Shown: positions 1-64,000 of the stretch, piece after piece
Position numbering within the stretch: the stretch's first letter is position 1
How the letters are laid out: each line of letters begins with the position of its first letter
Assembly (NCBI GenBank): GCA_963760245.1
Contig: CAVXCH010000004.1
Span: forward strand, 20,241 to 84,240
Direction: 5' to 3'
From: an uncultured Chloroflexia bacterium
Lineage (GTDB): Bacteria > Chloroflexota > Anaerolineae > Anaerolineales > Villigracilaceae
Length of the DNA stretch: 64,000 bases
Notes under the pieces: model-generated
Told to the model about the DNA's origin: nothing
Database searches by the model: none
Seen by the model: only the letters and a program-made list of their open reading frames with translations
Program-made: the position numbers and the translations under genes

Positions 1-390
1 GCGAATGAGGTAGCAACCAACAACTAACCCGGTACGCCCTATTCCACCGACGCAATGGAGATAAACCTTGCGACTTTCCGAGAGAGCCGCATCAATGGCA
101 TCCAATGCGGCTACCATCATTTGGGGGGAGGGTACACTAAAATCCGGAAAAGAAAAACGCAGATGCCGGACTTCCAGTTCAAAATAGGTGGCTTCATTTT
201 TCAGAATGGATGTATACGGGGGGCGCTCATTTTCGATTGTCAGGTCTATGAAAGTGTCGAAACCGGCATTAAGGAAGGCGGAGAGACGCTCGTGGGTTAC
301 AGCCTTATTGTTACTACGGACCGGATATTCTCCCGCCAGAAACTGTCCCGGGAACACCCAGTAGGATTCGGGGATGGGCTTATCGATCAT
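1..390 (-). CDS. Dual-specificity / tyrosine protein phosphatase (partial, C-terminus beyond window edge)
   Basis: Not in the ORF track because it runs off the edge. My minus-strand translation from the ATG at 390 reads MIDKPIPESYWVFPGQFLAGEYP...SRKVYLHCVGGIGRTGLVVGCYLIR with no stops. It contains the Cys-X5-Arg(S/T) PTP signature HCVGGIGRTG. The ATG overlaps the upstream stop (ATGA at 387-390). Confidence 0.75.
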   Translation of the reverse strand, partial: MIDKPIPESYWVFPGQFLAGEYPVRSNNKAVTHERLSAFLNAGFDTFIDLTIENERPPYTSILKNEATYFELEVRHLRFSFPDFSVPSPQMMVAALDAIDAALSESRKVYLHCVGGIGRTGLVVGCYLIR

Positions 391-1415
391 GGGAAGAGGA
401 AATATACCTTCAGCATACCGGAAGATTTCCGGCTGGTAAGCACAATCCCATAATCCCCAGCCGGGAGACGGTATTGTTTTTGCCAGTCGCTGGCAACAAT
501 GGAAACATCTTCTGAGTGCAAGAGCAGGAGCGAAGGCCCCTGTGACGGTGCAAGAGCCACATCAAAGTAATGAGTATCGATGCCAGTAACGCGGATGAAG
601 ATAGCCACATCACCGGCTCTGGGCAGATTGAACATGGCGATAGTCTCAGCTTCAACGTTGCGGGTAGAGAGGTCCACCGTGTCAGCAAGGTCGAACCCTT
701 TAGGCGGCTTGAGAAGCCCGTCCCCCAGGGTGGAGGTCAAAAGCATCCCGGCCCCGATCAAAGCCGCCGCAATCACTCCCCCCGCCAACACCCAGCGCCA
801 GGCCTGTACAGATTTTCCTCCGCCTGTAAACAAACCATGCCAATCCAAGCGCATACCCGCGTAACGCCGGACAAACAAGAACCAGCCACCGGCAAAGAAG
901 GCCAAGGCTACAAAAGCCACACTCAACGGTGGCAGCCCGCTGTGGGCAAGGAACCTGGTCACATCGTCGCCAGTGGGAGCTTCCTTTATCATGTAGAAGA
1001 AGGGAATGACGACCCAGGCCAACAGGGAGCAAAGGGTACCGGCTGAGGCTATGAATTTGGTCCAAAGAACCAGCGGGCTGCTGTTTTTCGGTAAAGTGAG
1101 GATCAGCATCAGCCAAACCAGGACTGGCAGCCCCACGCCGCTGATGTTGATCACAGCATCCTGGAAGCGAGTAAATTTTCCGCCAATATAGACATGCGCG
1201 CCAAGGTTGAAAAAGTTTAAATTAACTTCCCCAATCCGACCCCCGAAAGCCAGACCAGCCAGGGCGTGCCCGCCCTCATGCAGAACGGTATATGCCAGTG
1301 CGATCCCCAAGGCAATCAGCAGCGTAAAACTGGCAAATTTGAGTCGATCGGTAGTGAATGTCATTGGATCTTCGGGCGGGTGCACAATTTTGATTAGGCC
1401 AGTAGATGCATTCAA
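387..1415 (-). CDS. Membrane zinc metalloprotease-like protein (M50B-like HExxH) with a C-terminal soluble beta-rich domain
   Basis: 342-aa ORF with an HExxH motif inside a TM helix (TVLHEGGHALAG), 5-6 predicted TM segments and a non-hydrophobic tail of about 110 aa. Stop overlaps the phosphatase start. Confidence 0.55.
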   Translation of the reverse strand: MNASTGLIKIVHPPEDPMTFTTDRLKFASFTLLIALGIALAYTVLHEGGHALAGLAFGGRIGEVNLNFFNLGAHVYIGGKFTRFQDAVINISGVGLPVLVWLMLILTLPKNSSPLVLWTKFIASAGTLCSLLAWVVIPFFYMIKEAPTGDDVTRFLAHSGLPPLSVAFVALAFFAGGWFLFVRRYAGMRLDWHGLFTGGGKSVQAWRWVLAGGVIAAALIGAGMLLTSTLGDGLLKPPKGFDLADTVDLSTRNVEAETIAMFNLPRAGDVAIFIRVTGIDTHYFDVALAPSQGPSLLLLHSEDVSIVASDWQKQYRLPAGDYGIVLTSRKSSGMLKVYFLFP

Positions 1416-1463: not shown

Positions 1464-1910
1464 CTATTTGCCCATCATCTCCTGGACTATTTCCACTGCG
1501 TCTCCAACAAAATGAGGGCAGAGTGTTTTGAACACCTCTTTATCGACTGCCTGTTTCCGACCTGCATCGGTGCTGATATCAAAACCCAACAGTTCCCGGC
1601 AAAGGATGGAGCCATGCACGGACTCAAAACGACGTAAGAACTCCTGCCCAAGCCGGTAGGCATCCTCCTTTCCTGACGGAGTATCCGCTCCCATTGCCAG
1701 GCCGAGGGCCATCAACCCCCCCGACACTGCTCCGCATACCTGACCGCGGCGTGCAACACCGCCGCCAAAAGGTGAGGCTATTTTAAGCATGCTATTCTCA
1801 TCCATACCCAATTGAGACGCAAAGGTCGCTAATACCGACTGGGCACAATTGAAATTCCGTTTGAATAAAGAAACGGCAATTTCAGAAGGATCGAATTTAG
1901 AAGGTTCCAT
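1464..1910 (-). CDS. C_GCAxxG_C_C family redox-type protein
   Basis: Motifs NCAQSVL and QVCGAVSGG..ALG are typical of the family. I chose the ATG at 1910 (MEPSKFDP...) because the longer ORF overlaps the prs 3' end. Confidence 0.65.
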   Translation of the reverse strand: MEPSKFDPSEIAVSLFKRNFNCAQSVLATFASQLGMDENSMLKIASPFGGGVARRGQVCGAVSGGLMALGLAMGADTPSGKEDAYRLGQEFLRRFESVHGSILCRELLGFDISTDAGRKQAVDKEVFKTLCPHFVGDAVEIVQEMMGK

Positions 1911-1914
1911 TTTT

Positions 1915-2913
1915 TTATCCGGATTTCTCCGGGTTTTCGTCCCCATAAATAAACAAATCCCCAATAGACTCCCGCAAATAGTTGCGACGAATGGCATCCC
2001 CGAAAACAGGGGCGATCGAGAGCACGTGCAGTTTAGGATGACGCTTTTCAGGGGGAATATAGACGGTATCGGTGGTGACGATCTCTGTAATCTGAGGAAC
2101 GGAGGTCAGTTTTTGCAACCCACCGTGTACGAAGACCCCATGGGTGGAAGCCACCCAGATTTCCTGGACGCCCTCCCCGACCAGGATGCGGCTTAGCTCC
2201 AGCACCGACCCACCGGTGGCAATCTCATCATCATAAATAATGGCCTTCCGAAATCCCTGCACCGGGCGCCCAATCAAACCGCTGATTACAACTTTTGTGT
2301 CGGATAGGCGCTCCTTGTTCCCGGCTGCGACCGGCAGGTTCAGCCCCCTGGCAAACAAAGCGGCCGGCCCGGCTGAGCCCATATCGGGTGCAACCACCAC
2401 GGTCTCAGCCAGGTCGTGCGACTGAAAATAATTCCGGAAAACCGGTCGGCTGGTCAAGGGATCGGTGGGCACGCTGAAAAAGCCATGGGCTTGCGGCGAG
2501 TGCAATACCATTGTCATTACGTGGGTGGCACCGGCAGTCCTCAGCAGGTCGGCAACCAAGCGGGCCGTTATGGAAATGCGCGGCGCATCCTTTTTGTCTG
2601 AACGGGCAAAGGAAAAATACGGGATGATGGCATGAACTTCTTTAGCCGAGGCAGAGCGGGCGATATCCAGCATCATCAGCAACTCCACCAGGTTGTCGTT
2701 GACTGGGGGTGCAAGTGTTTGGACGATGAAAACGATGCGCGAGCGAACACTGGCACCGAGCTGGATATACAGGTTGTCATTGCTGAACCTGCTGACCAAT
2801 GTCTTTTCGAGCGGAAGGTTCAGATAGGCAGCAATATCGGCAGCCAGATGCGGGTGTGAACTGCCGCTGAAAATGCGAATTTCGTCCGGGTCAAGTGTGG
2901 TCCGATTGGTCAA
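1915..2913 (-). CDS. prs: Ribose-phosphate pyrophosphokinase
   Basis: 332 aa. N-terminal IFSGSSHPHLAADIA..L, PRPP-binding loop IIYDDEIATGGS. TTG start with GAGGAA 8 nt upstream. Confidence 0.9.
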   Translation of the reverse strand: MTNRTTLDPDEIRIFSGSSHPHLAADIAAYLNLPLEKTLVSRFSNDNLYIQLGASVRSRIVFIVQTLAPPVNDNLVELLMMLDIARSASAKEVHAIIPYFSFARSDKKDAPRISITARLVADLLRTAGATHVMTMVLHSPQAHGFFSVPTDPLTSRPVFRNYFQSHDLAETVVVAPDMGSAGPAALFARGLNLPVAAGNKERLSDTKVVISGLIGRPVQGFRKAIIYDDEIATGGSVLELSRILVGEGVQEIWVASTHGVFVHGGLQKLTSVPQITEIVTTDTVYIPPEKRHPKLHVLSIAPVFGDAIRRNYLRESIGDLFIYGDENPEKSG

Positions 2914-3056: not shown

Positions 3057-3085
3057 ATAAAAAGGGGCGGAACATATTCCGCCCC
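3057..3085 (-). terminator. Rho-independent terminator ending the radical-SAM gene block
   Basis: 9-bp GC-rich stem (plus strand GGGGCGGAA 3064-3072 / TTCCGCCCC 3077-3085, loop CATA). On the minus strand it is followed by TTTTTAT. It lies 16 nt after the stop at 3101. Confidence 0.75.
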
Positions 3086-3100
3086 CAGTGGGAAATCGAG

Positions 3101-4495
3101 CTAATGATAAATTTTCTCCCAAGGATCCCTCAGGAAATTCCCCAGGATCTTATCAGCTTCGCCCTGGGTGGGAAGCACATCGCCATCCGGTTCGACATAC
3201 AACCAGGCTTTGCCCGCGCCGGAGGGTACTTCGTCCTCGATGGTCTCGTGCGCCACAGGGTTCTCAGCGGAATAGGGAACGGGCAGGTCCCAGCGCAGGG
3301 TGAGACCGAGGCTGGCGGCTTTATTGTGCAAAACATGGAGGGCTTCGTGAAGAGAAGCCTCGGAAGCGCCGAGCGAGAGACTCTTGACCTCCAGTTTCGC
3401 CAGTTTTTCCAGAATTTCCCCGGCTTTGTTCACATTCTGCGGGGTAACCGTCAAGTGGACGGTGGTGTATAAATCTTCGGGCATGACCGTTTCCAACCCC
3501 TTCCAGGAGTCTGTGTTCTCAGGATCAAGAATAAAAAGTAAATGATCGAGACCGGTTTGCAGGAGGGTGTTCAGGTATTCTTTATCAGCCAGTTTCAACC
3601 CGTCGGAGAGCAAGCCGGCAACCTGCCCAACCTTCTCGGCGTGGGCAATCAGTGCCGGCAGGTCTTCGCGCAGGGTGGGCTCACCTCCGGTGAAAGTGAT
3701 GTGGGGGATGCCAACCGCCCAGGCCTTATCCATAATGGTTTCCCATTCCTGGGTAGTGAGTTCACGGTCTACGCGCTTGGTGGGAGCAAGCGAGGCGTCT
3801 GAACCAGCGGGCAGTCGATAGGTGAGCGCACAATCCAGACGCAAGGGCGCAGTCAAGTCGTGGGAATGAGGTGCGATGCGTTCAAAGTCGAGGAAGGTGG
3901 TCGGGTCCAGATCGGGGGTATGGATGAGTGTCTGGACGCGGTCACGGAAATCGGTGTAATCCATCAGCGCTTCCGCCTGGCTAATGCGGTAACGCTTGGA
4001 GATATGCCTGGCAGTTTCATCAGGCGAAGTGCCTTTTATCATGTGATAGGCAAATTCTGAGGCTGTGGCGTTCAGATGCAAAACCGTGGCGGCGTTAACG
4101 ATGAAGATGCCGGAACCGTCCTTCAGGAGGCGCAGATGCAAGCGATACGGAGGTTCATCCGGACCGGACTGGAAGGTGTGGGTTTCGGCGGGCAAAGGCT
4201 GATGGCGACCAGGTTTTTCAGCAAGGATCCAGAGGAGGATGAATCCCACCAGCAAAAGAAGCGCCTGGATGAAAATGCTGTATTTATACAGGAACCCACG
4301 GTGAATGAAAAAATAAAAGTAAATGGCAACCAGGAGGAAGACGATCCCGATAATTCGTACGATTACCCCTTTTGCATTATAGTTGCCTACTTTTAGTCTG
4401 CCTGCGATAAGGAGGAAAAGGCCCAGGAGGGGCATAATTACAAGAAAAACATACCGGGAGAGCAGATCCAAAGTGTTCAGCACTGTTTGGGACAT
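3101..4495 (-). CDS. Membrane-anchored radical-SAM/SPASM-like pseudoenzyme with RRE (PqqD-like) domain; Fe-S cysteines lost
   Basis: 464 aa with strong RBS AAGGAGG. Three N-terminal TM helices, then a PqqD-like segment (YRLHLRLLKDGSGIFIVNAATVLHLNATASEF..). The rSAM core keeps FTGGEPTL, but the CX3CX2C position reads YRLPAGSDASLA. The SPASM-equivalent region (AWLYVEPDGDVLPTQGEADKILGNF) has no Cys. Clear paralogue of 5197..6617. Confidence 0.8.
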   Translation of the reverse strand: MSQTVLNTLDLLSRYVFLVIMPLLGLFLLIAGRLKVGNYNAKGVIVRIIGIVFLLVAIYFYFFIHRGFLYKYSIFIQALLLLVGFILLWILAEKPGRHQPLPAETHTFQSGPDEPPYRLHLRLLKDGSGIFIVNAATVLHLNATASEFAYHMIKGTSPDETARHISKRYRISQAEALMDYTDFRDRVQTLIHTPDLDPTTFLDFERIAPHSHDLTAPLRLDCALTYRLPAGSDASLAPTKRVDRELTTQEWETIMDKAWAVGIPHITFTGGEPTLREDLPALIAHAEKVGQVAGLLSDGLKLADKEYLNTLLQTGLDHLLFILDPENTDSWKGLETVMPEDLYTTVHLTVTPQNVNKAGEILEKLAKLEVKSLSLGASEASLHEALHVLHNKAASLGLTLRWDLPVPYSAENPVAHETIEDEVPSGAGKAWLYVEPDGDVLPTQGEADKILGNFLRDPWEKIYH

Positions 4496-4510
4496 CGCAG
4501 CCTCCTTAAT

Positions 4511-4855
4511 TCATTCACGAATGAAGTGCGGTATTTCAAAAGGAATTTCAAAAGAAAACTCAATATAGCCGGCGTAGCGGCCGTCCTTGAACCAGGGGGA
4601 TTGATAAATGAATTTCTTGATACCATTCTTTTCGATGGTATAAGCATTAGCCTTTTGCTCATCCATCAGGCGTTCCAGTTTGCCGCGAGCGGGGTCGGGG
4701 TGGCAGTCGAGCATGTTCTTGCCAATCAAGGCGAGCCCGCCATCCTTAGCCATGGATTTGGCGGCCTTGTCGTTCATTTCGAGGATAATGCCGTCCGGGT
4801 CACTCACGGTGATTGCGGCAGGGAATTCCTTGATCCAGGCGTTTTCTTTGCTCAT
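4511..4855 (-). CDS. Small PAS-like protein (PAS_10-like, conserved DCHPDP motif), paralogue A
   Basis: 114 aa, RBS AAGGAG. Pattern ..ITVSDPDGIILEMNDKAA..LIGKNMLDCHPDPA..YTIEKNG..QSPW fits a single PAS fold. About 45% identical by eye to the next gene. Confidence 0.7.
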   Translation of the reverse strand: MSKENAWIKEFPAAITVSDPDGIILEMNDKAAKSMAKDGGLALIGKNMLDCHPDPARGKLERLMDEQKANAYTIEKNGIKKFIYQSPWFKDGRYAGYIEFSFEIPFEIPHFIRE

Positions 4856-4858
4856 GTT

Positions 4859-5200
4859 CTACTCCTTTTTGAAATGCGGAACATTTTCCGGAACAATAAA
4901 CGATATTTCCACGTACCCGGAATACAGGCCTTCCAGGTACCAGGGCGATTGGAAAAAGAAGCGTTTCTCGCCGTTCTCTGTGTTGAAATAGCAGTTGGTG
5001 GATTGGTCGTCCAACATACCCCCCAACTTGGTAAAGGCCGGGTCAGGATGGCAGTCGAGCACATTTGCGCCAAGGAGACCTTTTCCTCCGTCACCAGCGA
5101 AGAGCGCTTCGGCGTGGTCGTTCAATTCGAGGATGATCCCGCTGGAATCACAGACCATGATCTCGGCCGGAACCCCTTTCACCCAAAGTCCGTTGCTCAT
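4859..5200 (-). CDS. Small PAS-like protein, paralogue B
   Basis: Start chosen at MSNGLWVKG (ATG 5200), which forms an ATGA overlap with the upstream rSAM stop (5197-5200). It shares LDCHPDPA, QSPW and PHF motifs with paralogue A. Confidence 0.7.
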   Translation of the reverse strand: MSNGLWVKGVPAEIMVCDSSGIILELNDHAEALFAGDGGKGLLGANVLDCHPDPAFTKLGGMLDDQSTNCYFNTENGEKRFFFQSPWYLEGLYSGYVEISFIVPENVPHFKKE

Positions 5201-6617
5201 GCGACGCTCCCCTGCGCCACGTTTTTTTCGAATTGCAACGGGCAGCCGCCACCGCACTCGGCAAGCACAGCACAGCCGTTGCATTTTGCCGGCAGGGACT
5301 GGCGTTCGCGCAGCCTGACAGCCAGGTCGTGGTTCCAGATGGAATCCCAGTCATCAGCCAACAGGTTGCCGAGTTGATGATAATAAGACTGACAGGGCAG
5401 CACCCCACCATCGGGTTCGATGCACATGTTATAGAGGGCAGCTGTGCAACCCTTTACGCCCAGGTCCAGCGCCATCGGGTCGAAATCACAATACTGGGTG
5501 GGCGTATACCAGATAAGACGCTGGCCGCGGGCGAAGGTCTTTTGACGAGCCACTTCCAGAAGCGGGGACAAATCAGACTCTGCCAGCCCCGTCCCCACCA
5601 CGGAGCCTCGGCCCGAGTGGATCAGTGCGTTAAGTCCCACCGTGGGGACGCCAGTATCAGCCAGGAAATCCAGGGTGGCCGGGATGGTGTGGGCATTCGT
5701 GCGCAGCATGGTGGTATTGGTCATCACATAAAGTGGACTGGCGAGAGCGTTCTTCAACCCTTTGATCGTCTGCGGGAAAGCGCCCCTGGTGCGTACCATG
5801 GCATCATGGACCTCAGCATCGTTCGACTCAACCGTGATCTGAACGTGATCCAGCCCTGCAGCAACCAGCTTCTCAACATAACGCGGGTCCGAAAGGCGCC
5901 GGGCATTGGTGTTCAGCCCGGTGATCTGACCATTCTTCTCGGCGTGGGCCACGAGATCAGGCAGGTCATCGCGCAGGGTGGGCTCGCCGCCGGTGAAAAT
6001 AATGTGCGGAATGCCCAGTTCCCAGGCCTTGTCGAGGACGCGTTGCCAGCCTCCGGTGGAGAGTTCAGCTTTCGCATTTGAAGCTTCGGCCCGAGTAAAT
6101 TTCCCCCCTGCTCTAATGCCGTGGGGGAGGAATGTTGGACGTTATAACAGTGGGCGCAGTCGTTATTGCAGCGATACGTAAGCGCCAGGTCGAGACGGTA
6201 GGGGGCAGTAGGGCGGGCTGAGAATGGCATGACCGTTTCGAGCCCAAGCTCGTGGATCGGACAGGCACCGTCGGGACGGACGAGTTCTTCGAGCTGGCTG
6301 CGGACGGCTGCCACGTCCGCGCGCGCCTGGGCAGCATTTACGTGATATTTCCGCCGGATCAGGCGTACGGCTTCCCGTTCGGAGATGTCCTCCAGGGAAA
6401 AGTACGCCATCAAGGCGGCAGTGGGGTTAAGGTGCAGGATGCGATTGGCATTGACGATCAAAGTACCGTGACCATCAGGGTCCAGACGAAGGTGGATACG
6501 ACTTTTTTCATCCTTATCGACGCGATTATAGTGATACAACCCGGATTGAGGCTCCCCTACGGGGGCCTTTTTTCGGCTGAGGTCTTTTGACTGAACAACC
6601 TTTTCAACATCCGACAC
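5197..6617 (-). pseudogene. RRE-radical SAM/SPASM peptide/protein maturase; reading frame broken once as assembled (possible sequencing indel)
   Basis: ORF 5913..6617 carries the PqqD-like domain and YRCNNDCAHCYN (CX3CX2C), then goes out of frame. ORF 5197..5952, extended upstream, reads ELSTGGWQRVLDKAWELGIPHIIFTGGEPTL...; its C-terminus has CX2CX5CX3C (CNGCAVLAECGGGC). The two frames overlap over 6062-6140, which contains a C6 run at 6103-6108. GTG start without an obvious SD. Confidence 0.85.
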
Positions 6618-6650: not shown

Positions 6651-8346
6651 CTACCGTCCGCCACCGGCGCAGGCGCAGGCACAACCGGCACAGGCACAGG
6701 CACAGGCGCAGAATGACCGCCGCCACCCGAGAAACCACCGGTGTGCCCGCTTTTTACGACCGGGACCGGGTTGGTGCGGTTGGTGACGCCGGAAGTGAAT
6801 GACTTTACGTCACCGAGGACCTTGCTGGAGAAGCCCTGGACGCCGGTGACAACCGAGGCGGCAAATGCCGAACCCGGCAGGCTGGCTGAAGACCGTCCTC
6901 CGGAAGACGGCATGGAGACGGATGAGCCTGCGCCGGTCGAGACCGGATCGGTAACCTGGGTCATAGCGACCCCACCACATCGGGATGAAGATCGGCCCGG
7001 TAAAGACGTCGGCGGGTGCGCTCGTCGTAATTCTTGTCGAGCATGGTCCATTCGAGGGATTCGTCGTACATCTGGCTCTTGACCTCGGGCGTACCGGCCG
7101 CTTCGATCTGCTGCCAGGCGCGTTCCATGATGCTCTGGTAGTAGGCGATGGTTTCCTTGCGGCTGAAGCCTTTCATCTTGTCGGAAACACTGTTGACCAG
7201 CTTGACGGTCATCTCCTGCAGCCCCTTGCGGCGGGCGACCAGGTCGTCGACGGCAAACGCCGCCAGGAAATCCTTTTCGTAATCCTGCAGCCCATCGGGC
7301 AGAGGAGATGCCACCTGGAGTTTGAGCGGGTCGCGGGTGACAACCGTGGCGGCGTTCTTCTTGACCACGCCAAACAGGATCATGGTCATGACCTTGTCGA
7401 GCGGCTGTTCCATCAGGATGCCCGCTTCGACCGCGGTCAGGCCGCGCTTGATGCCGTGTCCTTCGATCTGGATCTTGGGCGGCAGGTACGCCAGTTTGCG
7501 TTTGTTTCCATTGATCGCGGACAAGATCGGCGCGCCGACGAACAGCAGGATAAAAAAGCCAAAACAGCAGACGCCGCTCAGATTACTCATGATGCCGTTG
7601 ATAAATCCACCGAGGTCCAAACCCAAGGCTGAGGGTGTCGCCCCGATAGCACCCGCCGGGACATAGGAATTCGGGAAGGACATGCCAAAGATATATTCGG
7701 TCGAGCCATCGGCGTTCGGGCAAGACCAGGTAAACCTCACCCTGCCCTGTCCATCCAGGTCCGCCTGGGGATTGGCATCGCAAGGCCAGCCTCCCGTTGC
7801 CGGATAATAAATGGATTCGGCAGGCTGCACGCCCGGAGGCAGATGGAAAACGACTGTCAGGGTCTCGCTGCCATGTGCGGTTGAGAAGTAGGCGGGGGCG
7901 AATTCACCGCTGGCATAGGTGGTGGTCTTTCCGGAATCGGTGCTGGGGTATAGTACGCCGGTGATGCTGCCAACAGCTACATGGACGCTTCCGGTCTGCC
8001 CCGGCTGAATGGCATCCGATCCCATGACTACTGAAAATCCGGAACCATTACCCTGATAATCCGATTGGGAGACCGTAAGGCTGTGTCCATTGGCGTCGGC
8101 CGATGCGGTGTTCATGTCGAAATTCCCATTGGGCATGCCCACATCCACATAGTCGATCACATGACCGCCGGAGTCATTGGCGAAGGTGAAAACGTAATCG
8201 AGCGCCATGGTCCCGTCGCTATTCCAGTAAACGTTGACGACTTCCTTCGTCAAATTAAAGGAATAAGACTGGGCAGCCACGCTGGAGACCATCGTGAAGA
8301 CCATAAATATCAGCACGATAGAAGCAAGCAGGCGGAGTTTTTTCAT
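6651..8346 (-). pseudogene. DUF2207-like membrane protein with Gly/Ser-rich C-terminal region; about 3 frame breaks in the last 400 nt as assembled
   Basis: Start at MKKLRLLASIV.. (signal peptide, RBS AGGAGGAAGGG). Beta-rich ectodomain, TM helix, then GLTAVEAGILMEQPLDKV.. In the tail, frame A ends at 6961; frame B reads FTGPIFIPMWWGRYDPGY with better GC3; frame C (ORF 6644..7051) reads SSGGRSSASLPGSAFAASVVTGVQGFS...GGFSGGGGHS; a further frame gives the Cys-Ala tail. Alternatively, ORF 6644..6964 (MTQVT.., ATGA overlap with the 6961 stop) is a separate 106-aa gene. Confidence 0.6.
6660..6711 (-). repeat. Coding hexanucleotide microsatellite (TGY-GCC)n
   Basis: Minus strand reads tgcgcctgtgcctgtgcctgtgccggttgtgcctgcgcctgcgccggtggcggacggtag. 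This gives APVPVPVPVVPAPAPVADGRS in the ORF-track frame, or CACACACAGCACACAGGGR-stop (stop at 6651-6653) in the +1 frame. Confidence 0.9.
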
Positions 8347-8395: not shown

Positions 8396-8791
8396 CTACC
8401 ACTTGGGTTCTTCGGTGAGTTGATAAACCGTATTGCAGTACGGACAGGTGACGACAGGCGCACCGTTCACCATTTTGATGTTGTCGGTAGTCAACGCGCC
8501 GCCGCAGGAACGGCACTTCATTTGCTCAATCTTGGTGTCGCCCGGCAGGTCCACCTTGTAAGTAACGTTTTGAGCGGTGTCCGTCTTCGTCTTGCGAGCC
8601 GCCAAAACAATCATGATAATTCCAGCCACCAGGGCGACTGCTCCAAGCAGCATCCCAACGGTGCCGATCCCGGACACGCCCTGGGCACCGCCGGCTGCGC
8701 CCAACAAGATAAAGCCCCCGACACAAATTCCCGAGGCAGCCAACAAGAGCAGGATGACTGCACCGATATACAACCAGGTTCCAGGTTTCAT
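8396..8791 (-). CDS. Membrane protein with C-terminal zinc ribbon
   Basis: Start at MKPGTW (GGAGG 6 nt upstream). Two TM helices, then CRSCGG...CPYCN (CxxC x2). Confidence 0.6.
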   Translation of the reverse strand: MKPGTWLYIGAVILLLLAASGICVGGFILLGAAGGAQGVSGIGTVGMLLGAVALVAGIIMIVLAARKTKTDTAQNVTYKVDLPGDTKIEQMKCRSCGGALTTDNIKMVNGAPVVTCPYCNTVYQLTEEPKW

Positions 8792-22817: not shown

Positions 22818-23066
22818 TTCTTCTCCGTTTATCAAATCAGGATATGCCTATTAAAACACCTTCAACCTGAATTGTATACGGGGATAGGAATTCAACCCTC
22901 TACTCACGGGATGGGACAAGTGTGAACTCATTCCAGAAGGGGTCCAAAGAACGAAATCCGGTGAACAGCGTATGTTTCTTTGTAACTGATTTCAATTCCG
23001 AATAAAATACCCTCATTACTCGTTATATTTGTGAACGCCGCAATCAACGTAAAAAAAGGATGACTG

Positions 23067-23645
23067 GTGGTGCAATCCCAAACTGCGGACACTGAAACCG
23101 GCCTGATCGAACAGGCCCAGCACGGTGACCGCAACGCATTCGGTGAACTGGTCCGCCGCCACTATCAGGGAGTTGTCCTGGTGGTCACCCGCATGTGCGG
23201 TGACACCGGACTGGCGGAAGATGCCGCCCAGGAAGCCTTCATGCGGGCCTGGGTGAACCTGCCATCCTTCCAGCCCAAAGGCTGCCTGCGGAACTGGTTA
23301 TACCGGATCGCCATCAACGCCGCACTGGACGTCCTGCGACATAAGCCGGAAGAAACGCTCGATGACGAACAGGCGCTCAAGATGCCAGACCAGGCAGCGG
23401 ACCCGGAAACGGCTTTGATCGAAAAAGAACGAGCAGCCGTGCTCCATCAGGCAGTCAAGTCCCTGCCGGATGCGGCCCGTGCGGTGCTGGTGCTGAGGGA
23501 GTACGGCGGGCTCTCGTACCAGGAAATTGCCGGAACGCTGGATGTGCCGATCGGCACGGTCATGTCCCGCCTGAATTACGCCCGCAACCGGCTGCGGGAA
23601 GTCCTTATCGGTGAAATGGAAATAACGGAGAGCAAATATGCATGA
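23067..23645 (+). CDS. ECF-type RNA polymerase sigma factor
   Basis: Region 2 (AFGELVRRHYQGV..EDAAQEAFMRAW) and region 4 (LREYGGLSYQEIAGTLDVPIGTVMSRLNYAR). GTG start. Confidence 0.9.
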   Translation: MVQSQTADTETGLIEQAQHGDRNAFGELVRRHYQGVVLVVTRMCGDTGLAEDAAQEAFMRAWVNLPSFQPKGCLRNWLYRIAINAALDVLRHKPEETLDDEQALKMPDQAADPETALIEKERAAVLHQAVKSLPDAARAVLVLREYGGLSYQEIAGTLDVPIGTVMSRLNYARNRLREVLIGEMEITESKYA

Positions 23646-24246
23646 AGAGATGCGCACCCTGCTGAATGCTTACCTGGATGGCGAACTTCAAGGCCAGCGC
23701 CTGCGGGAAATGGAGACCCACCTGGCTTCCTGTGCGATTTGCCAGAAAGAGCTCAAGGAACTGCGCCTGATTTCGGAACAGCTGCAAGCCGACACAGCAC
23801 TGGAGGCTCCTTCCGCAGAGCGCTTCGTTTCACAACTGACCCTGAGCCTGCCGCGCACGGCCTCAGGAAGACCGCCCGCCAAAACCCGTCTCGCTGGTCT
23901 GGTGGCTCGTCCCGGCAGGGTTGCTGGTTTCTTGGTTTTTATCCAGACGGTGTACACCCTGACCGATGTAGTGACGGCCGCGAATTTGACAGGCTTGCTG
24001 GGTAGTGCCTCCCGGTGGTTGGGGAGCGGAGAGGAATCGCTCTGGTTAAGCGCGGCGACAACATTGTTCGGTGGACAAATCCTGGCACAACCCATCCTCT
24101 CCCTGCTGAATAATGTGAGCGTTGCCATCGCCGGACTTTTTAGTGGATTCCTCTGGCAGGCAGTCATCGTTCTGCTCTACTGGGCCTGGCTATGTTTCTG
24201 GTGGCTGCGGCACAACCCTCGGCCGGTTAGGATGAAAACGTCGTAA
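23638..24246 (+). CDS. Anti-sigma factor (zf-HC2) with TM segments
   Basis: N-terminal H-x3-C-x2-C (HLASCAICQKEL). 8-nt overlap with the sigma gene. C-terminal hydrophobic segments. Confidence 0.8.
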   Translation: MHEEMRTLLNAYLDGELQGQRLREMETHLASCAICQKELKELRLISEQLQADTALEAPSAERFVSQLTLSLPRTASGRPPAKTRLAGLVARPGRVAGFLVFIQTVYTLTDVVTAANLTGLLGSASRWLGSGEESLWLSAATTLFGGQILAQPILSLLNNVSVAIAGLFSGFLWQAVIVLLYWAWLCFWWLRHNPRPVRMKTS

Positions 24247-62627: not shown

Positions 62628-63036
62628 TCAGGGTCTCCTCATAAACATAAGGCGTTGGCCAGGTAATTTGCTGAGCATCAAAATACATACTGGGTAAAAC
62701 ATCAAGCCTGTTTTCTCGGATAAATCTTCAGAATATTAACCGATCTTCCGATTTGATATTCCAACCGTGATCATTCCATTTCGTGGGCAGGCAAGAAAGT
62801 TCCACCATCCACGATAAACAGGTTTACCAAGATCTCTATTCCCGTTCTCTTATTTCTGCAAATTCTAGTAATTATAGTGCATCCCTCCATCCGGGGGACC
62901 CATTGCCAACCTGATCGATCGCAGGATTATTATGTTAATTTGGGTATAATATTCCTCTAGGGGAAATCGCTCCTGGAAAGATCGAGTCTGTCTTTTTGCG
63001 ATCCCTTAATTTGTTCTGCTTATTACTTATTCCATA

Positions 63037-64000
63037 ATGAAGAAACATGTCCTGATTGCAGGGTACTACGGTTTTCATAATAACGGGGATGAAGCCATTT
63101 TGCGCGTCCTGCTTGAGGACCTTAGACAGGCTGAACCAAACGTGTCTATCTGTATATTATCCGGCGATCCCGAATCTACCCGGCGAAATTATGGCGTCGA
63201 GGCCATCACTCACGGAGACATCAATGGGATTATCGAGCAGGCACGCCGGAGTGATGCCCTGATCGTTGGCGGGGGAGGAATTTTCCAGGATTACTGGGGA
63301 TCTCTAAAACACACCCTCCTTACCAGCGAGCAGGCTGGTCTTCCATTCTACAGCAGTCTGCCTATATTGGGCCACTTGTTGGATAAACCTGTTCTCATCT
63401 ATGCCGTCGGAGCCGGACCCTTCCTCAGCCCAGAAGCAAAAGAGTTGACGCGCCTGTCCTTTGAGATCGCGACCATCTCCACCGTGCGGGACCGCGAATT
63501 CACTTGAATTACTCCATTCAATCGGTGTTCCGGCCAAGAAGATGCAAATCACAGCTGATCCAGCCTTTGCTTTGCATGCGGATTCTATCCATTCCTTGGA
63601 GATTCTCAATGCTTTGTCTGTCGATCCCAGTCGCCCGGTTGTAGGAGTCTGCTTGCGGAATTGGGACCTTGGAATTGAGCAATCGATCTGGCAGGCAGGG
63701 ACAGCAGCCGGTCTTGACAATTTTGCCGATCGTACAGGCTGTTCGTTTATCTTCCTGCCATTCCAGGATCTTCCCTCTTCCCCTCTCACCCAGGACTCGC
63801 TCGCTGCCATGGCAGTGATTCAGCACATGAAGCATCAGCAGGACTGTGTGCTGGTCCCTTCGCAAGAGGATCCGACAGTCACTGCCGGGATCCTGGCTAC
63901 CTGTGCCATGGTCGTCGGGATGCGCTATCACTCTATCGTTTTTGCAGCCAGTTCTGGTGTCCCATTGGTTGCTTTGGCGTACGATTCCAAAGTAGCCCAC
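63037..64000 (+). pseudogene. Polysaccharide pyruvyl transferase (CsaB-like), 3' partial; one frame break as assembled
   Basis: LIAGYYGFHNNGDEAIL..GGGGIFQDYW.. (ORF 63037..63507), then in the next frame ANSLELLHSIGVPAKKMQITADPAFAL...GMRYHSIVFAASSGVPLVALAYDSKVA to the window end. Break near 63488-63496. Confidence 0.8.

Follow-up and report, generated by a model that had tools for sequence, protein, structure and literature searches.

A conserved, membrane-anchored radical SAM/SPASM paralogue without cluster cysteines beside an active paralogue in Anaerolineae

The window, a 64,000-nucleotide stretch of contig CAVXCH010000004.1 (assembly GCA_963760245.1, positions 20,241–84,240, forward strand) from an uncultured Chloroflexia bacterium of the Anaerolineales, encodes two neighboring paralogues of the radical S-adenosylmethionine (SAM) superfamily with PqqD-like and SPASM regions. 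One of them is hereafter called the active partner. The other, called the dead gene (Table 1), is, as judged by sequence comparison, an old duplicate of this adjacent maturase that has lost all three Fe–S cluster sites and most of the blocks found unchanged throughout the active enzymes. Since the loss of cysteines is clade-wide, the gene is under purifying selection, and folds like those of radical SAM enzymes and of the RiPP recognition element (RRE; RiPP, peptide synthesized on the ribosome and modified after translation) are retained, a non-catalytic binding subunit is the best reading. Specifically, the dead protein would be a membrane-tethered, non-catalytic, still peptide-binding partner of the adjacent active radical SAM enzyme, for which our estimate is only slightly better than even (roughly 55%).

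An earlier note on this DNA, made from the sequence alone, had described the dead gene as a radical SAM/SPASM paralogue without cluster cysteines, and all three alignments that it quoted were reproduced by BLASTP. The dead protein and the frame-corrected neighbor share 34% sequence identity over 396 columns, with an E value of 5e-61. The active copy has 12 Cys residues, including C150, C154, and C157 of the CX3CX2C motif and the SPASM set. When aligned with it, the dead protein has neither CX3CX2C nor any SPASM cysteine; its single Cys, which had been counted as the only one outside the transmembrane (TM) region, is the only one in the whole protein, namely C222 within RLDCALTYR. The description of the neighbor as an active paralogue holds with respect to paralogy, but in the window that gene is not one intact open reading frame (ORF); the strings quoted for it came from different frames, and the frameshifts had been missed.

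The AlphaFold2 model of the dead protein (pLDDT 82) contains an RRE-like domain, six β/α units, and a C-terminal hairpin, in line with retention of both folds. The three N-terminal TM helices proposed before were also predicted here, both by hydropathy (residues 8–37, 39–70, and 67–96) and in the model (residues 3–31, 44–63, and 73–91). In the RRE-like domain, strands at residues 104–141 are followed by three helices within residues 143–192. The PqqD profile PF05402 matches 56 of 62 family members with a best E value of 5.6e-8, while the window protein alone misses the threshold of 0.01; the PqqD-like domain claimed earlier is thus a PqqD/RRE-like domain at the family level, by winged-helix fold and profile match, and its peptide binding is a prediction. 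The barrel belongs to the radical SAM superfamily by its PF04055 match (35.1 bits, cut-off 29.5, residues 239–321 only), its six β/α units, and Foldseek, in which SkfB, PqqE, and SuiB were the best PDB matches and, together with MoaA, gave E values of 1e-10 to 1e-6. The nearest solved structure by sequence is that of PqqE (PDB 6c8v, E 5e-15). The defining CX3CX2C motif of the superfamily, however, is absent from the dead protein, from 120 orthologues, and from the soluble relatives described below. Likewise, every Cys aligned with the seven-cysteine SPASM pattern (PF13186/TIGR04085, two auxiliary [4Fe-4S] clusters) is replaced, and PF13186 gives weak matches in only 10 of the 62 family members.

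Retained and lost motifs were defined by a family-versus-family alignment of 80 dead and 57 active sequences. The dead family keeps the RRE strands YRLHLR and LIVNAxTVLHLNxTA, the segments RLDCALTYR, GIPHxxFTGGEPTLRxDL (which holds the GGE motif), GLDH, and VWDxPVPYS, and, further on, WLYVEPDGDVLPxQG and LGNxLxDxW; the GGE motif (FTGGEPTLR) and GLDH are invariant. Gone are the cluster loop, two barrel loops of ~14 residues, and the C-terminal CX2CX5CX3C part of SPASM. NTN, QITxES, MTNTT, and GLNALIYSG, four blocks without variation among the active partners, are degenerate or partly deleted in the dead family. The SAM-binding motifs named for radical SAM enzymes are GGE, the ribose motif, GxIxGxxE, and the β6 motif; beyond GGE, we take the four blocks to correspond to such motifs and to include SAM-contacting strands. 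Conversely, C222, W331, H347/T349, Y433, and D439 are invariant only on the dead side. Indeed, C222 is present in 62 of 62 family members at a position occupied by Leu in the active partner.

The cysteine loss is conserved in the clade, as the check suggested in the earlier note now indicates. Among the best 120 database matches (70–100% identity, 382–478 amino acids, mostly 455–478), none contains CX3CX2C and all contain C222. Pairwise ratios of nonsynonymous to synonymous substitution rates (dN/dS) among orthologues are 0.07–0.18 for the dead gene and 0.09–0.16 for the active gene, with 0.16 and 0.135, respectively, for the least saturated pair (L007–L014); for the dead gene, L012 was left out of the comparison, since this long-read metagenome-assembled genome (MAG) carries a frameshift in it. 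The unsaturated comparison of the window with the short-read contig L101 (GCA_049514675.1) gave 11 synonymous and 4 nonsynonymous differences in the dead gene, i.e., a dN/dS of 0.12. The constraint is unevenly distributed. The SPASM remnant (residues 401–464) is the most constrained part (dN/dS 0.00–0.04, amino-acid identity 92–100%), followed by the barrel (0.04–0.24, 75–91%) and the PqqD-like domain (0.09–0.14, 71–86%), and the TM anchor is the most variable (0.10–0.44, 34–79%), with its three helices retained. These substitution patterns indicate that the dead gene is under purifying selection comparable to that on the active copy, with no sign of relaxation, and is not decaying. A decaying pseudogene or recently inactivated duplicate, for which the loss of catalytic cysteines and nothing else would speak, is thus practically out of the question: the ORF and the strong ribosome-binding site noted earlier (AAGGAGG, 4507–4501) are intact, the gene lies in a conserved operon, and the loss is common to thousands of relatives down to ~30% identity. 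The conservation and selection data rule decay out.

The same data bear on the earlier proposal of a maintained non-catalytic binding subunit. Maintenance is supported by conservation and dN/dS, and the binding role is our best reading, but C222, H347, and W331, found only on the dead side, leave room for a cluster-independent activity. The protein might have lost radical chemistry and gained, through C222 and H347, a different function in the same pathway, for example a Cys/His-based step on the tail described below or the binding of a metal, SAM, or a SAM-derived ligand. The Leu-to-Cys difference at position 222, the further dead-only invariants (H347, T349, W331, Y433, and D439), the invariant GGE and GLDH motifs, and the strong constraint on the barrel core would all fit such a new function. 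Most of the invariant polar residues, however, also occur in the active paralogue and may therefore have a structural role, four active-invariant blocks (the presumed SAM-contacting strands) are degenerate, and two barrel loops are deleted. We consider this neo-functionalization rather unlikely, though it is the main rival of the partner reading.

By score, the dead protein is a member of no curated family; every NCBIfam score is far under its cut-off. PqqE (TIGR02109) was rejected at 68 bits against the required 381, and no pqq genes are present around the dead gene in the window or in the orthologue loci. The pseudo-radical-SAM/SPASM family TIGR04347 is among the better NCBIfam matches of the dead protein, yet the window protein reaches only 45 bits and its soluble relatives 37–77 bits against a cut-off of 525, and membership was rejected. 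TIGR04150/IPR026418 is not among the NCBIfam matches listed for the relatives or the window protein (the best 25 of 32), and its context differs, since the hosts here are Chloroflexota, not Bacteroidales, and the target differs from GG-leader peptides.

The earlier note had also described a dead paralogue that gained a membrane anchor. The protein is indeed cluster-less and anchored, but this did not come about in one event, the cysteine loss being far older. In an exhaustive HMMER search, the nearest 50%-identity clusters were proteins of 370–400 amino acids that align from residue ~100 on; these soluble relatives have no TM segment, no CX3CX2C, and 1–5 Cys residues. A profile of this soluble form matched >7,600 sequences at E < 1e-20, whose named sources were all Anaerolineales, Anaerolineaceae, or Chloroflexota and whose annotation was merely "radical SAM protein". 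We retrieved 80 metagenome loci with the most divergent cluster-less clade, on which the synteny counts below are also based. In these, CX3CX2C is present in 57 of 57 active partners (median 13 Cys) and in none of the dead genes, whose median Cys count is 2. In a neighbor-joining tree, the anchored proteins form a clade (100/100) nested in the soluble cluster-less group, and a long branch parts the latter from the motif-bearing enzymes; the exact bipartition was recovered in only 39 of 100 replicates, long-branch members (P0248) being the cause. Among the active enzymes sit two proteins without the motif, P0177 and P0234, which may be independent losses or fragments. Because the anchored clade is nested in this way, loss and anchor are two events: on the sequence evidence, the cysteine loss is ancient and defines a deep, very large soluble family of ~385 residues, and the anchor is a later gain in one nested subclade.

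The partner and substrate context, which was absent from the earlier note, consists of a five-gene cassette. In the soluble form (loci L018–L020), its core comprises a zinc-ribbon protein, a membrane protein of 557–592 amino acids, the active radical SAM enzyme, the dead gene, and a class-I SAM methyltransferase. Of 58 informative loci, 57 have the active gene upstream of the dead gene; the active gene and the tail-bearing membrane protein are both there in 45 of 47, and all three upstream genes in 39 of 41; the methyltransferase follows the dead gene in 60 of 62. In the anchored form, for Anaerolineales MAG loci with flanks long enough, the order is Na/H exchanger, two-TM zinc-ribbon protein, large membrane protein, active radical SAM gene, PAS-like a, PAS-like b, dead gene, and prs. 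Here the methyltransferase is found 2–6 kb downstream, and for the window it would be expected just past coordinate 1.

The large membrane protein (the tail protein) is the candidate substrate. Wherever a locus extends to the 3' end of its gene, the protein terminates in CACACACAGCACACAGGGR; most loci have this tail exactly, and in three it is longer or shorter by one CA unit. Across the 64 unique C-termini, two conserved blocks, TPEVKS..WTMLD..PVFVP.WW.RYDP and PGS.FAAS..FTS..TN.TNP.P, and a variable Gly-rich linker lie ahead of the tail. The protein is predicted to have a signal peptide, a confidently modeled outside β-sandwich, and one TM segment followed by KRK and a cytoplasmic region, although the model is poor past residue 410. 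With this arrangement, the tail would be cytoplasmic and within reach of a radical SAM enzyme. No Pfam or NCBIfam match was found for it at E ≤ 1. A function could not be taken from the outside domain, which merely resembles the β-sandwich of M1 aminopeptidases and OST1/ribophorin.

These loci also bear on whether the dead protein works with the active enzyme at all. It might instead be a chaperone or escort that forms no complex with the radical SAM enzyme and whose ligand is the Cys-rich tail or else the cytoplasmic domain of the tail protein, which it would protect, target, or regulate. In three loci (L070, L075, and L092), the dead gene directly follows the tail gene with no active gene between; in several lineages, accessory genes (the PAS-like pair or three lipid-related genes) part the active and dead genes, and the membrane anchor puts the dead protein together with the tail protein. 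The active enzyme, on the other hand, is encoded immediately upstream in nearly all informative loci and is the very protein to which the dead one is paralogous, and the three exceptions are short contigs, so that the active gene may lie elsewhere. A pure escort role is hence quite unlikely.

In the window itself, the active and tail genes are broken. The 90%-identity cluster of the window protein has a second member, present on short-read contigs, and over 10.5 kb, L101 and the window share 97.7% identity, with exactly five 1-bp indels between them. Two are −1 indels in the active gene, in an A run near 6574 (A7 to A6) and a G run near 6109 (G7 to G6), because of which parts of that gene lie in different frames; the other three, in the upstream tail gene (near 7008, 6948, and 6711), put the tail in another frame than the body. 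Correcting the G-run indel alone yields an active protein that matches PF04055, PF13186, and PF05402. L101–L103 encode an intact 471-residue radical SAM/SPASM protein, and L101, whose flank is long enough, also encodes an intact 564-residue upstream protein. A polysaccharide pyruvyl transferase gene (PF04230, PS_pyruv_trans) at 63010–64000 is split in the same way, its two parts covering profile positions 3–131 and 132–280; apart from it, a heuristic scan for further frameshifts in the window was mostly uninformative. Given the intact genes in L101, purifying substitutions between the two sequences (dN/dS of 0.19 in the active and 0.07 in the tail gene), the similarly split pyruvyl transferase gene, and the origin of the window from a 1.5-Mb metagenomic contig, the frameshifts in both genes are almost certainly assembly errors. 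All five indels fall within 900 bp of the 10.5 kb, inside these two genes, a clustering that would fit a system defunct in this genome, with the active and tail genes true pseudogenes and the dead paralogue persisting alone. This scenario is very unlikely, since substitutions in both genes are purifying, two of the indels are −1 changes in homopolymer runs, and the genes are intact in three short-read contigs of the same population.

Returning to the non-catalytic partner, the following arrangement can be proposed. The dead protein would pair with the active enzyme, probably as a heterodimer, and would hold or present the conserved C-terminal part of the membrane protein encoded upstream. On the best reading, it has kept two peptide-handling surfaces for this purpose, the PqqD/RRE-like domain and the SPASM β-hairpin, at which the peptide would bind. 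The active subunit would perform radical chemistry on CACACACAGCACACAGGGR, most plausibly Cys-based cross-linking, and the methyltransferase of the cassette would also act. The three TM helices, expected to be oriented N-out and C-in, would keep the complex at the membrane, on the cytoplasmic side, next to its membrane-bound substrate. Several points weigh against this arrangement. Both the interaction between the dead and active proteins and the topology of the helices are ones that we infer. The residues invariant only in the dead family (C222, H347/T349, W331, Y433, and D439) hint at a site for a ligand, a metal, or catalysis, which a pure scaffold could do without, and since the GGE motif is invariant, SAM may still be bound. 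Finally, there are the three short contigs in which the active gene is missing between the tail gene and the dead gene.

A more far-reaching version of the partner reading is possible but doubtful. The dead protein could be an obligate pseudo-enzyme subunit of an undescribed maturation system found in many lineages of Anaerolineae. In it, a heterodimer of radical SAM and cluster-less proteins, together with the methyltransferase, would cross-link the cytoplasmic CACACACAGCACACAGGGR and so make of it a structure rich in sulfur, resembling a cofactor or binding metal, that remains attached to the protein. If true, this would be radical SAM maturation at the protein level and not the production of a secreted RiPP, and the lineage of the window would have moved the pseudo-enzyme onto the membrane.

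Table 1. Features of the window around the dead gene and other genes mentioned in the text
Feature	Coordinates	Strand	Remarks
Cluster-less PqqD/radical SAM/SPASM-like paralogue (dead gene)	3101..4495	-	Intact ORF, 464 aa
N-terminal membrane anchor of dead protein	4211..4495	-	Residues 1–95; three predicted TM helices; least constrained part
PqqD-like/RRE-like winged-helix domain	3911..4198	-	~Residues 100–195; aligns with PqqD region of active copy
Degenerate radical SAM (β/α)6 core	3296..3856	-	~Residues 214–400; GGE kept, CX3CX2C lost, two ~14-aa deletions
Cys-free SPASM remnant	3104..3295	-	Residues 401–464, WLYVEPDGDVLPTQG...LGNF; C-terminal CX2CX5CX3C segment deleted; most constrained part
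Shine-Dalgarno AAGGAGG	4501..4507	-	5 nt before dead-gene ATG at 4495; read from the sequence
Intrinsic-terminator-like hairpin	3063..3086	-	10-bp stem with 7 GC pairs, then T run; directly after dead-gene stop; consensus match only
Small PAS-like protein b	4511..4855	-	114 aa; LDCHPDP motif; PF08448 at 25.6 bits
Small PAS-like protein a	4859..5200	-	113 aa; paralogue of b; ATG overlaps radical SAM stop (ATGA)
Active partner, PqqD-radical SAM-SPASM	5197..6610	-	471 aa when intact; broken in window by two -1 indels
Candidate substrate, single-pass membrane protein (tail protein)	6651..8346	-	564 aa when intact; tail encoded at ~6651–6710
Two-TM protein with C-terminal zinc ribbon	8396..8791	-	131 aa; first cassette gene; weak zinc-ribbon matches and synteny
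Peptidase_M50B membrane protein	387..1415	-	
C_GCAxxG_C_C family protein	1464..1997	-	
ECF sigma factor, then zf-HC2 anti-sigma factor	23064..24243	+	Ordinary pair
Polysaccharide pyruvyl transferase (PF04230), split	63010..63504 / 63449..64000	+	

The remaining genes around the dead gene vary between lineages. The two small PAS-like proteins share the conserved LDCHPDP motif, and their sole PDB match is a weak one to 2qkp, an uncharacterized PAS-like protein with a CHP motif. All anchored-clade loci whose flank is available have PAS-like b immediately upstream of the dead gene, and no match to the pair is listed in any of 80 soluble-form loci; the pair appears to be specific to the anchored clade. 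In L019 and L020 (5856–7986), three membrane-lipid genes (CDP-alcohol phosphatidyltransferase, lipid A-type acyltransferase, and PAP2) are located between the active and dead genes, and other inserts occur at this junction in L051, L073, L074, L081, and L090. The L019 type is the sister of the anchored clade in the neighbor-joining tree. A fusion with a neighboring membrane gene of this sister-type locus (PAP2, CDP-alcohol transferase, or acyltransferase) was tried as the source of the TM anchor and rejected, as no significant similarity was found. Directly after the dead gene and before prs, a 226-residue multi-TM protein is encoded in part of the anchored clade, namely in L001, L005, L007 (9420–10097), and L012–L016; it is absent from the window, and its sequence presumably places it near isoprenylcysteine-carboxyl or phospholipid methyltransferases. 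Downstream neighbors common to the window and the anchored clade are the C_GCAxxG_C_C family protein and the Peptidase_M50B membrane protein, the latter with a raised dN/dS of 0.59 against L101. Beyond the window edge, L101 continues with a PTP-like phosphatase, the cassette methyltransferase, and an S26 signal peptidase. Elsewhere, the window carries an ordinary pair of genes for an extracytoplasmic function (ECF) sigma factor and a zf-HC2 anti-sigma factor.

Cluster-less radical SAM homologs are known in kind. Families of the TIGR04150 and TIGR04347 type keep their SPASM domain, whereas the dead family has lost all SPASM cysteines together with the C-terminal half of the domain. It further differs from them in its fused PqqD/RRE-like domain, its restriction to Chloroflexota, and its apparent target, the tail of a membrane protein of ~560–590 residues, and the subclade of the window differs in its membrane anchor as well. 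TIGR04150/IPR026418 (GG-Bacteroidales) and TIGR04347 (Halobacteria) are catalogued pseudo-radical-SAM families with no experimentally shown function (PMC10352776). Like the dead family, they lack CX3CX2C and occur beside a true radical SAM/SPASM enzyme and a candidate target peptide, and the partnership is presumed there (PMC10352776). Since such homologs have already been catalogued beside true enzymes, what sets the dead family apart is that the SPASM clusters are also lost, an RRE-like domain is fused, the apparent target is a protein tail, the family is very large within one phylum, and, in the lineage of the window, an anchor is present.

The closest functional parallel is given by TrnC and TrnD of thuricin CD, a heterodimer of radical SAM paralogues whose catalysis depends on the radical SAM cluster of TrnC only, with TrnD serving chiefly in leader binding and with the RREs as the dimer interface (PMC12406949). 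As in the cassette, two adjacent radical SAM paralogues are encoded in one operon, and the substrate is Cys-rich. TrnD, however, retains both its clusters and SAM cleavage, while the dead protein has lost all clusters naturally; moreover, the thuricin substrate is a small leader-core peptide rather than a protein tail, and the pairing considered here is a proposal. By analogy, the dead family would be an evolutionary end state of a TrnC/TrnD-like asymmetry.

PqqE/PqqD, SkfB, SuiB, and MftC share the order RRE, barrel, and SPASM with the dead protein, whose best sequence matches are to PqqE and whose best fold matches are to SkfB, PqqE, and SuiB. The precursors of PQQ and mycofactocin carry an invariant, not hypervariable, target motif, as is the case for CACACACAGCACACAGGGR. 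Yet the dead protein misses the curated cut-offs of these maturases widely, and as it has no Fe–S ligands, it cannot perform the chemistry that defines PqqE-type enzymes.

To date, the TrnC/TrnD work (2025) is the only experimental hint that a radical SAM paralogue may serve non-catalytically. Because the second subunit is here cluster-free and yet strongly selected in a large natural family, the role of a cluster-less radical SAM protein becomes directly testable. The uncharacterized five-gene cassette is present in thousands of Anaerolineae sequences and is of more interest than the dead enzyme alone; literature searches on the tail motif and on the combination of Anaerolineae, SPASM, and radical SAM returned nothing relevant, and no paper describing the cassette was found. 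Its near-invariant Cys-Ala tail points to a so far undescribed post-translational modification or to a cofactor carried on the protein. The phylum concerned is abundant in sludge, sediments, and soils. The anchored variant illustrates how such a complex would be relocated to its substrate.

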